Assembly: GCF_041248615.1 (NCBI RefSeq)
Contig: NZ_CP158426.1
DNA from: Escherichia coli
Lineage (GTDB): Bacteria; Pseudomonadota; Gammaproteobacteria; Enterobacterales; Enterobacteriaceae
Strand: one strand, 5' to 3'
Length of the DNA stretch: 64,000 bases
Shown in pieces: positions 1 through 3,000 of this stretch (its first letter is position 1; each line of letters starts with the position of its first letter). Made by a program: the position numbers.

Positions 1-3000
1 CTTTAGACATTTTTTACACCTTTTTCTGTGCAAGACACTTACCAGTGTGCACAATACTTATGCTTTTCTAAAGCCGGGAATTTTTAAGTTTGATTGATCA
101 ATTGTTAACTTTAAAAGTTACTTTTAACAATCACTTAGACGATCTAAAGCCGCAATTAACATAATATAAGTTGACATGCAAGCACTTTTTACCGTATAGT
201 GCGGGTTTCCTACCTACCCAGGAAATGAGTTCCTACCTACCCAGGAAATGAGTTCCTACAATACTATAATTAAACTACAATTAAACTATCTTTTATAAAT
301 TCTTTTATCTTTTAAAGAATAATTATAGGGATACCCGTTAGGGAGTCTTCGACTATCCCTTAATCTATTGGCATTCGCCAGAACCTTGCACAAGTTAGAC
401 TGATGCTTGTCATAACAGATAGTTTTTGTTTTTTGTTTTTTGTTAGTAGTTAGCTGATCTATGTTCGCTTTCCGCTCACAACGAATATGTAATCTACTAT
501 GTGCAAATAGCCTACGGCTTGCGTATGGCTAATAGTCTTGCGCTGTGCGCAGAACGATAATTAACTAACTACCATCTAACGATTGAAATTTACTTGTGCA
601 ATAACCTGAGCGTAAGCGAATGGTTGTTAGTGTCTATGCGCTGTGCGCTTCAATAGTTCCATTGATGAGGCTTACGCCAATCTAACGATCATCAATCTAT
701 TTAAGAGAAAATCTATTGTGCAATACTCTGACGAGTGCAATAACCTTGTGTGCTACGCGTTAGCGATGTTAGCACATAGACACAGACAACAACCAACAAC
801 AAACAAAAAAGAAAGAATGGTTTTAGTAGTTGAAGGTTAAATAAGTTTCTACCGCTTAAATCAAGCCGTAGGCGAGCTAAACGTATATAAGGTAGGGAAA
901 CACTTAGCGGTAATAGATTAGCTCGTTATAGAGCTTCTGAGGAGCTTTACAGGTATTTTATAAGATGTCTGAAATCAGAGTTTATCTATCCACCATCTTT
1001 CCATCATCTGATAAATCAAAAATAAGCCCCTTAAATAAGCCTCTGACGAGATAAACAACCTCTACATAAGGGAATGTATTGTTTTTATCAAAACCCCCGT
1101 CAGAGTGCGATTGAGAGCGTTTTAGACAACAGGGAAGAATTGTACCAGAGTAGGCAGCACAAAAAGCTAAGAAAAATTATAAGAAATTGAAAATGATCAA
1201 GTTTTTTATAAAAGAGGGTTGACAAAGCCGCCGTTATGTAGTATTGTAAGTAGGGAGGGGAGAAACATCTCTCTCCATCTAAATAATCAAATCACAGAAC
1301 ACTGCACTTTGAGCCGTCAGGCTGCAAGGTGTGTTTTTCTTTTATCTAAATAAGGAGTTTTTTATGAAATGGTATACACCGGAACACGTCGTAGAGGCAT
1401 TTAAAAAAGGTGAGCTAACACGACATCAAGTAAGGATGAACAGGAACACAGCGCGGCGCTGTGGTTATCCAGAGCGTGAAAAATGCTTTGACGATGCACT
1501 AAAAAGGTAATGACTCCAACTTATTGATAGTGTTTTATGTTCAGATAATGCCCGATGACTTTGTCATGCAGCTCCACCGATTTTGAGAACGACAGCGACT
1601 TCCGTCCCAGCCGTGCCAGGTGCTGCCTCAGATTCAGGTTATGCCGCTCAATTCGCTGCGTATATCGCTTGCTGATTACGTGCAGCTTTCCCTTCAGGCG
1701 GGATTCATACAGCGGCCAGCCATCCGTCATCCATATCACCACGTCAAAGGGTGACAGCAGGCTCATAAGACGCCCCAGCGTCGCCATAGTGCGTTCACCG
1801 AATACGTGCGCAACAACCGTCTTCCGGAGCCTGTCATACGCGTAAAACAGCCAGCGCTGGCGCGATTTAGCCCCGACGTATCCCCACTGTTCGTCCATTT
1901 CCGCGCAGACGATGACGTCACTGCCCGGCTGTATGCGCGAGGTTACCGACTGCGGCCTGAGTTTTTTAAATGGCGGAAAATCGTGTTGAGGCCAACGCCC
2001 ATAATGCGGGCGGTTGCCCGGCATCCAACGCCATTCATGGCCATATCAATGATTTTCTGGTGCGTACCGGGTTGAGAAGCGGTGTAAGTGAACTGCAGTT
2101 GCCATGTTTTACGGCAGTGAGAGCAGAGATAGCGCTGATGTCCGGCAGTGCTTTTGCCGTTACGCACCACCCCGTCAGTAGCTGAACAGGAGGGACAGCT
2201 GATAGAAACAGAAGCCACTGGAGCACCTCAAAAACACCATCATACACTAAATCAGTAAGTTGGCAGCATCACCGACAAATGCGCTCAACATAATTAGATG
2301 ACTTTTTATATGTTTGAGGATTTTGTTATTGAAATTCTTTGCGCCACCAATGCTCTCTTTGTATCCCGCATTAACTTTTATGGCAGGTGGGGCATTGTGT
2401 GTATGTGCGTCTGTTGACGAGTTTATTACATGATTTTGTATGTTAATGTCATTATGGATCTTGAATCCTCTTCTCGGCACGGTTGCAATTAGCGAGTGGG
2501 TAGTATCACCAACAGCGCGAAATCCGCGTCTGATAATGGATATGTTCTGATATAACGTGTTAGTAGGCACACGCATACCTTCTTCTTCCCAGACTCTGGT
2601 GAAAAAATCTTGTTGTGCAACCACATCAGGAAAAGCTTCAAGTAGAAGTGATAAACATCGACTGGCTGGCGTTGTCAGAACGACGTTAAGATCGGCGTTA
2701 TGTACCGATATTAATTTTCGGTGCTCAGGCCAGAACTCGATATTATCGTTAATAATCCAGTACATACGTCAATAAACACTAAATCAATCGAAATGGAGAT
2801 CACATAGTTTGCTAAGTATATTGGTATTTACGGCATAAATATATATTAATTTTATATTTATCATGATGATTGAAATGAGGCTTTAATGTTGCAACGTAAA
2901 ACTTTACGTAAATTAACATGGTTAACATTTATGCCACTATTGTTTGTAAATTCATATTTCGTAATGCTTCTGAATTTTTCGTGTGATGGTTTTAAATACT

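Follow-up and report, generated by a model that had tools for sequence, protein, structure and literature searches.

The window, a 64,000-nucleotide stretch of the chromosome of Escherichia coli NRZ14408, holds a single IS1 copy that lies between the remnant of a phage-like island and a truncated yqeI gene (Table 1). IS1 elements measure ∼768 bp and are bounded by imperfect inverted repeats of ∼23 bp, the first bases of which are GGT(G/A)ATG. The copy in the window reads GGTAATGACTCCAAC at its left end, which is the right inverted repeat (IRR), and terminates in GTTGGCAGCATCACC at its right end, which is the left inverted repeat (IRL); the two repeats agree at 18 of 23 positions, and IRL is identical to GGTGATGCTGCCAACTTACTGAT. 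The insA and insB′ frames are both open, and the TTAAAAAAC motif at which they would be joined sits at position 305 of the element. InsB′ clears the 100-bit cut-off of NCBIfam profile NF033558, and InsA, which covers the N-terminal 81 profile positions, scores 90 bits and additionally matches the zinc-binding IS1/IS1595 domain. RefSeq annotates the element as an IS1B-family transposase with programmed frameshift. By its length, ends, frames and profile matches the element belongs to the IS1 family, and the original prediction of a complete IS1 with both termini intact is confirmed. A survey of the NRZ14408 chromosome located IS1 at eight places.

To the left of IS1, the end of the island remnant (37% GC) consists of a gene-free, repeat-rich stretch followed by the beginning of the island's rightward operon. 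All 1,505 bp of this region match strains 700462 and 3908 at 100% identity. Identity to O26:H11 strains is 99.8–99.9%, and there the region runs on into the replication, capsid and integrase genes. From glyU to IS1 the remnant spans 4,773 bp and is colinear with 700462. The IS1 left junction falls at codon 47 of a small island ORF, the intact version of which encodes 60 amino acids (WP_000872470.1). Searches of PHROG and NCBIfam with the truncated ORF gave no match, and an Rfam scan of window positions 1–6000 returned nothing. The promoter-like site upstream of this ORF belongs to a class of sites that are no more numerous in this region than in shuffled sequence.

To the right of IS1, yqeI is cut after codon 164, inside a hydrophobic segment, such that the winged-helix DNA-binding domain is retained and the last 105 codons are gone; the frame reads 8 codons into IS1 and stops at 2247. 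The earlier description of a truncated yqeI joined to unrelated AT-rich DNA thus holds for both flanks. The gene order around the locus, xdhA-actS-glyU ... yqeI-yqeH-yqeG-yqeF, is conserved, and yqeH-yqeI is uninterrupted in K-12-type genomes, in agreement with the original statement that K-12 has no IS1 at this site.

Table 1. Features of the IS1 locus (window positions) and left IS1 endpoints in the genomes that share its right junction (L006 positions, O26:H11 FWSEC0001)
Feature	Position	Strand	Remarks
Right-hand end of surviving remnant of ∼13.5-kb phage-like island integrated at tRNA-Gly glyU	1–1505		Sequence identity to intact islands
Promoter-like site (TTGACA, 17-bp spacer, TATTGT) preceding small ORF	1219–1247	+	Consensus match only, 10/12
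Truncated small island ORF	1364–1510	+	47 native codons, then Arg and stop from IS1 end
Complete IS1 (IS1B type)	1506–2273	−	768 bp
IS1 IRR	1506–1528	−	Variable junction, only in NRZ14408
insB′ reading frame of IS1 transposase	1521–2024	−	NF033558, 143.8 bits
insA	1943–2218	−	NF033558 and IS1/IS1595 zinc-binding domain
A6C programmed −1 frameshift site, joining insA to insB′	1961–1969	−	Motif match
IS1 promoter-like site	2266–2239	−	
IS1 IRL	2251–2273	−	Anchored junction with yqeI, common to 11 genomes
yqeI 5′ part, codons 1–164	2274–2765	−	492 nt, cut by IS1
Left endpoint, PSS-10	31491 (L006)		
Left endpoint, ECCWS199, LR-27 and JSMCR1	29028 (L006)		
Left endpoint, P276M	28575 (L006)		
Left endpoint, AR_0085	27293 (L006)		
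Left endpoint, TUM9803	24275 (L006)		
Left endpoint, ET896	24042 (L006)		
Left endpoint, NRZ14408	5538 (L006)		
Left endpoint, FG92-1 and E3			Inside other glyU islands

Absent target-site duplication and missing DNA

Insertion of IS1 usually duplicates 9 bp of its target; the duplication marks a simple insertion and is not needed for the identity of the element. The 9 bp next to the left end of the IS1 in the window read CACTAAAAA and those next to its right end read GACAAATGC, and no repeat exists between these flanks, as had been predicted. With each IS1 end shifted by up to 3 bp, no direct repeat of 6–14 bp with at most one mismatch was found, and extension of the search to 5–14 bp gave just trivial 5-mers with one mismatch. 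Simple IS1 insertions nearby carry perfect 9-bp duplications, namely CTCATACTG at the same locus in ECCWS199 and LR-27, and GGAGTTTTT in a related island in Tig228. As these sister copies do have duplications, the missing duplication in NRZ14408 is informative. Decay of a former repeat is rejected, given that the flanks are 29–35 kb apart in reference genomes, and the duplication is lacking because the two flanks never formed one target.

Alignment of the flanks to intact loci defines the missing segment. The flanks are separated by 29,454 bp in strain 700462 and by 34,805 bp in O26:H11 FWSEC0001 (L006 positions 5538 and 40344), and in both genomes they keep the order and orientation of the window. 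The replication, capsid and integrase genes of the island and its attR fall within the intervening DNA, as do the entire ETT2 remnant, yqeK, yqeJ and the yqeI 3′ end. Five 150-bp probes from this segment (capsid, integrase, eprH, ygeH and yqeJ) are absent from the NRZ14408 chromosome record; the search that included them returned eight places, which equals the count for IS1 only, with no extra match. Likewise, no ETT2 genes (epr, epa, eiv, ygeG-K) lie between glyU and yqeI in NRZ14408. Inversion or translocation is rejected by the absence of the probes, and a deletion rather than a rearrangement is supported, as judged on the chromosome record. Approximately 30 kb has therefore been lost at an intact IS1, amounting to the ETT2 island and most of the neighbouring phage-like island (two thirds of the glyU island). 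The original prediction of an IS1-mediated deletion or IS1-IS1 recombination is upheld by the 29.5–34.8 kb that is missing relative to intact loci, and neither a hidden 8–9-bp duplication nor a reference with contiguous flanks emerged from the searches for them.

A shared right junction and a variable left junction

The two IS1 junctions were surveyed in 5,426 complete genomes. The junction of IS1 with yqeI is base-identical in 11 of these (NRZ14408 and 10 others), whereas the left junction of NRZ14408 occurs in that genome alone (1/5,426). The original assignment of the insertion as strain-specific is consequently correct for the left junction and incorrect for the right. Among the 11 genomes the left IS1 endpoint falls at nine different places (Table 1), and the IS1 of the window is 100% identical (768/768) to the yqeI-anchored copies of eight of the other genomes. 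The right chromosomal flank of the junction-sharing genomes exhibits 0–5 differences in 6 kb (20–23 for P276M), compared with 76–79 for O26 and 700462, and the left chromosomal flank (xdhA-actS-glyU) exhibits 0–2 differences in 2.9 kb, compared with 9–20 for O26 and 700462. Near-identical flanks on both sides fit the descent of all 11 junctions from one insertion. The left junction of IS1 with epaU is confined to three genomes, all of which also carry the yqeI right junction.

A simple insertion of the kind expected in the ancestor, in which GACAAATGC would border both ends of an IS1 in yqeI, is absent from the 5,426 complete genomes and from metagenome contigs. The query ran from yqeI through GACAAATGC into the IRR of IS1, and in the complete genomes returned just other nearby IS1 insertions. 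The IS1/yqeI right junction was likewise not found in metagenome contigs, which probably break at IS copies. No rightward deletions from the yqeI-anchored IS1 were seen in the survey of the epaU junction, a tiny sample, and part of the apparent one-sidedness of the deletions stems from ascertainment, the genomes having been collected by a right-junction search. By these sequence comparisons, the 11 genomes form a series of nested deletions that have a pre-existing IS1 as their common anchor.

Route of the deletion and competing explanations

The locus is very probably the outcome of an IS1-anchored deletion, in which a prior insertion in yqeI was followed by leftward, IS1-dependent loss that reached the glyU island. 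From the distribution of the junctions we infer that an ancestor gained IS1 in yqeI, forming the IRL/GACAAATGC junction now carried by the 11 genomes. Deletion would then have spread to the left of the IRR end, possibly as a succession of steps, and in NRZ14408 the deletion front would have stopped inside the small ORF of the island. The total loss along this path would be 29–35 kb, running from the yqeI 3′ end, yqeJ and yqeK through ETT2 to the attR, integrase, capsid and replication genes of the island. The chemistry is most likely that of the classical ‘adjacent deletion’ of IS1, an intramolecular replicative transposition whereby IS1 attacks a target on its own molecule. Such an event, which would require transposase and proceed without RecA, would leave the chromosome with a single IS copy that has an old junction at one end and a new one at the other, and the intervening DNA would exit as a circle; no duplication is expected from it. 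The intact state of IS1 in NRZ14408 counts in favour of an IS1-dependent deletion. The deletion accounts for the absence of the ETT2 island from NRZ14408, for a yqeI pseudogene that still encodes the DNA-binding domain, to which YqeI has been cut, and for a dead glyU island remnant that is unable to excise.

The end product is alike for one-step intramolecular transposition and for insertion of a second IS1 followed by IS1-IS1 recombination. In the latter, two-step route a second IS1 of the same orientation, with its own 9-bp duplication of CACTAAAAA, would have entered the small ORF, and RecA-dependent homologous recombination with the yqeI-anchored copy would have left one hybrid IS1. This route is possible, albeit on balance not the one we expect, and rivals just the chemistry of the best explanation, as the outcome is still an IS1-anchored deletion. 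It is documented at the locus: in ECCWS199 and LR-27 two IS1 copies in direct orientation are separated by 462 bp, the upstream one with a perfect duplication of CTCATACTG, and P276M is the exact predicted recombinant, CTCATACTG/IS1/GACAAATGC. Furthermore, the IS1 copies of the locus vary at positions 373, 376 and 642 and in a patch at 666–705 (TUM9803), which suggests exchange between copies, and in Tig228 IS1 has inserted independently ∼150 bp away, within a related island. However, in none of the 5,426 genomes is an IS1 at the left site of NRZ14408 followed by island sequence on its other side, and eight of the nine left endpoints show no two-copy intermediate. The NRZ14408 element, at 768/768 positions equal to the anchored copy, also bears no hybrid signature, although a crossover to the left of 642 would leave none. 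The polymorphisms are in fact uninformative on transposition versus recombination, the sole marker that separates the upstream copies (642) being near the right end.

Horizontal import is improbable. Here the IS1-yqeI segment would have come from another strain, with crossovers in an island-resident IS1 and in the backbone to the right. In keeping with such an exchange, NRZ14408 has eight IS1 places and a larger chromosome, against 17–40 places in most junction-sharing genomes, and the island is mobile, being 100% identical in 700462 though the backbone differs by 1.3%. The left backbone (xdhA-actS-glyU) of NRZ14408 nevertheless shares its haplotype with the junction-sharing genomes, at 0–2 differences in 2.9 kb; with both backbone flanks sharing that haplotype, import of the junction is not needed.

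The remaining explanations are both highly improbable. An assembly artefact, by which the flanks of two different IS1 copies were mis-joined across the 768-bp repeat and the deletion is unreal, is conceivable for a chromosome with eight IS1 copies and a record deposited as linear, yet is close to refuted: the capsid, integrase, eprH, ygeH and yqeJ probes have no match elsewhere in the chromosome record, both flanks stand in the conserved gene order, and the same kind of junction exists in ten independently assembled complete genomes. A simple insertion with a decayed duplication, or entry of IS1 into a pre-formed deletion, is sometimes invoked for IS copies that lack duplications, and de novo IS capture at a double-strand break has been proposed for some events (PMC11708052). 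Against these, the flanks are contiguous in no reference, and one IS1/yqeI junction with nine partners places IS1 at yqeI before the NRZ14408-specific junction formed. A pre-formed deletion would require 11 independent insertions at the same base, and, provided that the junctions are not independent, this class of explanation is refuted by the shared right junction.

Relation to known IS deletions and to ETT2 attrition

Classical IS1-promoted adjacent deletions were reportedly described by Reif and Saedler in 1975 in the gal region of E. coli K-12. The IS1-anchored deletions at yqeI resemble these in having one fixed IS1 junction, deletions of variable length from the other end, and a surviving copy without duplication. 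In contrast to the gal deletions, which were obtained by selection in the laboratory on a defined substrate, the yqeI series is reconstructed from natural isolates by sequence comparison. The mutational attrition of the ETT2 island is likewise said to have been noted by Ren et al. in 2004. The ETT2 island beside glyU is often truncated, with isoforms that have right-end deletions of several kb and transposase insertions (PMC11068852), whereas NRZ14408 has lost all ETT2 genes from glyU to yqeI plus two thirds of a separate glyU island.

In time series from the long-term evolution experiment (LTEE), IS insertion was followed by an adjacent deletion without duplication, and the deletion was subsequently extended; 14 of 14 deletion-associated IS copies lacked duplications, and 69 of 69 plain insertions had them (PMC11708052). 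The yqeI locus parallels these events in the succession of insertion, duplication-free adjacent deletion and extension, and in the same contrast between copies with and without duplications. The two differ in that the LTEE elements are of the IS3 family and their order was directly observed, whereas here the element is IS1 and the order follows from genome comparison. A further likeness is to IS26, for which intramolecular replicative transposition on resistance plasmids reportedly gives deletions or inversions adjacent to a resident IS, seen by mismatched flanking duplications (PMC4471558); IS26 is of another IS family and acts there on another replicon. Among the papers searched in full text, none described a yqeI-anchored IS1 series or an IS1-anchored ETT2 deletion series. 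IS-mediated deletion is a well-known kind of event, and the NRZ14408 case is real, well explained and ordinary, with no new element or mechanism.

A broader reading, which we put forward tentatively and regard as unlikely, is that the yqeI-anchored IS1 acts as a long-lived, one-directional ‘deletion front’ in one E. coli lineage, arising from a single insertion and consuming ETT2 and then at least three different glyU islands. If so, it would supply a specific mechanism for the long-noted ETT2 attrition, and the islands would have been immobilised by loss of attR, with the integrase also lost in NRZ14408 and JSMCR1. The leftward bias, if real rather than an effect of sampling, might reflect selection against AT-rich horizontally acquired DNA or an asymmetry of the IS1 ends in intramolecular transposition. 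The 11 genomes in any case provide a tidy natural nested deletion series on one IS copy, with perfect 9-bp duplications and an IS1-IS1 recombinant as controls at the same locus, and the locus is of use as a teaching example or as a system in which to measure the rate and direction of IS1 adjacent deletions.

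The IS1 copy and its junctions

The window, whose position 1 is position 1,088,001 of the NRZ14408 chromosome record (NZ_LT599825.1), contains a single IS1 in its 64 kb, a textbook element whose GC content is 53.5% versus 37% in its flanks and whose IRR and IRL match at 18 of 23 positions. Its 9-bp borders read CACTAAAAA (left) and GACAAATGC (right), and no direct repeat of 6–14 bp with at most one mismatch is found around the ends, with each end shifted by up to 3 bp. The original prediction of a complete IS1 with non-repeated flanks thus holds in all details, as does that of a truncated yqeI beside it. 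To the right, the genes follow the usual order (yqeI, yqeH, yqeG, yqeF, kduI etc.), and yqeI keeps the first 164 of its 269 codons, the break falling within a hydrophobic segment (HLIMLSAFV/IGAYSAYWLW); the Trans_reg_C winged-helix domain (residues 28–102) is retained and the frame extends 8 codons inside IS1.

On the left, IS1 borders not the type III secretion remnant island ETT2 but what is left of a phage-like island that had integrated at glyU, a tRNA-Gly gene; this island accounts for the ‘unrelated AT-rich DNA’ predicted on this side. Codon 47 of the first small ORF of the island (60 aa when intact) adjoins IS1, the end of which supplies an Arg and a stop. In 700462, a strain with an intact locus, the island measures ∼13.5 kb, and a repeat of the final 22 bp of glyU (TCGATTCCCTTCGCCCGCTCCA) marks its limits. 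It opens with a hypothetical gene, followed by a YecR lipoprotein and a serine DNA invertase. After ∼2.3 kb that carry no gene annotation come small ORFs, a Rep/O-like protein, a single major head protein, a tape-measure-like protein of 613 aa, a tyrosine integrase and, last, attR. Window 1–1505 is matched at full length in 145 of 5,426 complete E. coli genomes; with more distant relatives, island matches total ∼500 genomes, some at other loci.

Features of the IS1 locus and left endpoints of deletions anchored in yqeI (window coordinates unless a locus is named; FWSEC0001, intact O26:H11 locus)
Feature	Coordinates	Strand	Remarks
Intact island copy	L016 (locus with intact island), reverse complement, about 70–13640		
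NRZ14408 island remnant	1–1505, continuing upstream beyond the window; NRZ14408 locus (L003) 6610–11382		
IS1, 768 bp	1506–2273	minus	complete, both ends present
IRR (plus-strand left end)			starts GGTAATGACTCCAAC
IRL (plus-strand right end)			finishes GTTGGCAGCATCACC; exact match to canonical IRL
insA	1943–2218	minus	open; NCBIfam IS1 transposase model matched
insB′ frame	1521–2024	minus	open; NCBIfam IS1 transposase model matched
Frameshift motif	1961–1969		TTAAAAAAC
PSS-10 endpoint	FWSEC0001 31491		directly after eprH
ECCWS199, LR-27, JSMCR1 endpoint	FWSEC0001 29028		within epaU
P276M endpoint	FWSEC0001 28575		within epaU
AR_0085 endpoint	FWSEC0001 27293		after epaS
TUM9803 endpoint	FWSEC0001 24275		ygeQ
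ET896 endpoint	FWSEC0001 24042		ygeQ
NRZ14408 endpoint	FWSEC0001 5538		glyU island
FG92-1, E3 endpoints	absent from FWSEC0001 locus		inside other glyU-integrated islands

Extent of the deletion and left endpoints of the yqeI-anchored series

In FWSEC0001 the two flanks lie at locus positions 5538 and 40344 with 34,805 bp between them, and in 700462 they are 29,454 bp apart, in the same order and orientation. From the island, NRZ14408 has lost attR together with the genes for replication, capsid, integrase and the tape-measure-like protein. Also gone are the whole ETT2 remnant (ygeQ; epa, epr and eiv genes; ygeG-K), yqeK and yqeJ, and the 318 nt that end yqeI. A composite query joined the NRZ14408 left junction to 150-bp probes for five parts of the lost segment (capsid, integrase, eprH, ygeH, yqeJ). 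NRZ14408 ranked first, with 8 places, the same count as for IS1 plus flank alone, and thus the probes have no match elsewhere on this chromosome. The event is a deletion, so that of the IS1-mediated deletion or rearrangement originally proposed the former is upheld by the distance between the flanks and the absent probes; the latter rule out inversion or translocation of the missing DNA and render an assembly mis-join very unlikely.

The left junction (island to IRR) occurs in 1 of the 5,426 genomes, NRZ14408 itself. The right junction (IRL to GACAAATGC in yqeI) is base-identical in 11 genomes (NRZ14408, ECCWS199, AR_0085, P276M, JSMCR1, ET896, PSS-10, LR-27, FG92-1, E3 and TUM9803), among which the DNA on the other side of IS1 varies. 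The NRZ14408 element is identical at 768/768 positions to the anchored copies in eight of the others, and to copies in many genomes. Backbones of junction-sharing genomes are almost identical, with 0–5 differences in 6 kb on the right (P276M, 20–23) and 0–2 in 2.9 kb on the left; the O26 strain and 700462 show 76–79 differences on the right and 9–20 on the left. The simplest reading of these sequences is that IS1 entered yqeI once, in an ancestor, and that nested leftward deletions came later, all of which retain the IRL junction; the NRZ14408 deletion is among the larger ones. A search with one left junction, covering just three genomes, found no rightward deletions, and the leftward bias seen here stems in part from the way in which the genomes were retrieved. 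FG92-1 and E3 carry different glyU islands, each with its own integrase, that are also cut by the anchored deletion; it seems that glyU repeatedly receives islands, which are later truncated from the yqeI side.

Route to the NRZ14408 junction

IS1 was already at yqeI, and the NRZ14408-specific event made the IRR junction only, removing everything between. Adjacent deletion is classical for IS1, the gal system being the known example; a single IS copy remains, one of its junctions old and the other new, and no duplication is produced. Following ancestral insertion into yqeI, intramolecular replicative transposition from the resident IS1 would have removed the DNA leftward in one step. We consider this the somewhat more probable route because eight of the nine left endpoints lack any observed intermediate with two copies, and because time-resolved data for IS150 follow a like pattern of insertion, adjacent deletion and then extension (PMC11708052). 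Alternatively, a second IS1 inserted in direct orientation and both copies recombined, giving the same end product. IS1–IS1 recombination is proven to operate at this locus: the second IS1 in epaU of ECCWS199 and LR-27 bears a perfect 9-bp duplication (CTCATACTG), indicating that ordinary insertions here leave the expected mark, and the P276M borders (CTCATACTG left, GACAAATGC right) are exactly those that recombination between the two direct copies of an ECCWS199-like ancestor would yield. The sequence of the surviving IS1 fits both routes: position 642, the only marker distinguishing upstream copies, lies so near the right end that most crossovers would go untraced. With intermediates missing for all but one endpoint, this two-step course is a possible but less likely origin of the NRZ14408 allele. 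Given the shared junction, absent probes and matching backbone haplotypes, three further ideas are excluded or unneeded: that an earlier duplication decayed, that IS1 inserted into a deletion already present, and that the junction was imported horizontally.

Adjacent deletion and IS–IS recombination are standard explanations for IS copies without duplications (PMC11708052), and ETT2 deletion isoforms and transposase insertions are well known (PMC11068852). The allele formed by the NRZ14408 junction is new, but the type of event behind it is entirely known. No description of the yqeI-anchored series was found in the literature searched. The series is of modest interest as a clean set of nested deletions in nature that comes with its own controls, and it suggests a part for IS1 in ETT2 attrition and in the erosion of glyU-integrated islands.

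Neighbouring IS1 copies and the gene-free island stretch

In JSMCR1, the IRL junction of the upstream IS1 is still in epaU, but the IRR of this copy now adjoins the glyU island at position 8375, which marks a second anchored deletion, of ∼20 kb; the copy is 786 bp long owing to an 18-bp tandem duplication (CCGTCCCAG repeated) within insB. Near the IRL of the anchored IS1 of TUM9803, nine substitutions fall within 40 bp (positions 666–705), with no other changes in the copy; the cluster resembles a gene-conversion patch derived from a different IS1 variant. In a related island of Tig228, an IS1 flanked by a perfect 9-bp duplication (GGAGTTTTT) lies ∼150 bp away from the left junction of NRZ14408. 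In 504838, a related island that lacks the replication-to-capsid segment contains an IS1 with no duplication. yqeI (window 2274–2765 plus its missing continuation; FWSEC0001 locus about 39700–40900) is a frequent landing site, with 27 further genomes carrying a same-orientation IS1 within ∼650 bp at no fewer than 14 distinct positions. These include strain C1, in which IS1 lies 4 bp off the anchored site, differs at 5 bases and has a separate leftward deletion that reaches ygeQ. As a rough uniform expectation is a handful of genomes, the enrichment is moderate, and it fits the preference of IS1 for AT-rich DNA. IS1 also occurs near epaU in other clades.

The island shares 167–260-bp stretches of 90–96% identity with ∼150-kb E. 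coli phages (muut, inny, Mt1B1_P17, PaulScherrer and Justusliebigvirus VEcB); a satellite of these phages would fit such stretches, as a lead only. Window 1–1363 is the right part of the ∼2.3-kb annotation-free stretch between the invertase and the island operon, notable at 410–830 and 207–252. A search of Rfam gave no match. The region is mosaic among related islands, and might serve as an iteron-bearing origin, as a substrate of the invertase or as a structured RNA. A T-rich run (421–450) can pair with an A/C-rich run (780–815), enclosing ∼320 nt, and the fold z-score is −3.7 on the minus strand and −1.5 on the plus strand. Several 15–25-bp motifs recur, and an exact 23-bp repeat (TTCCTACCTACCCAGGAAATGAG) is present twice in tandem.
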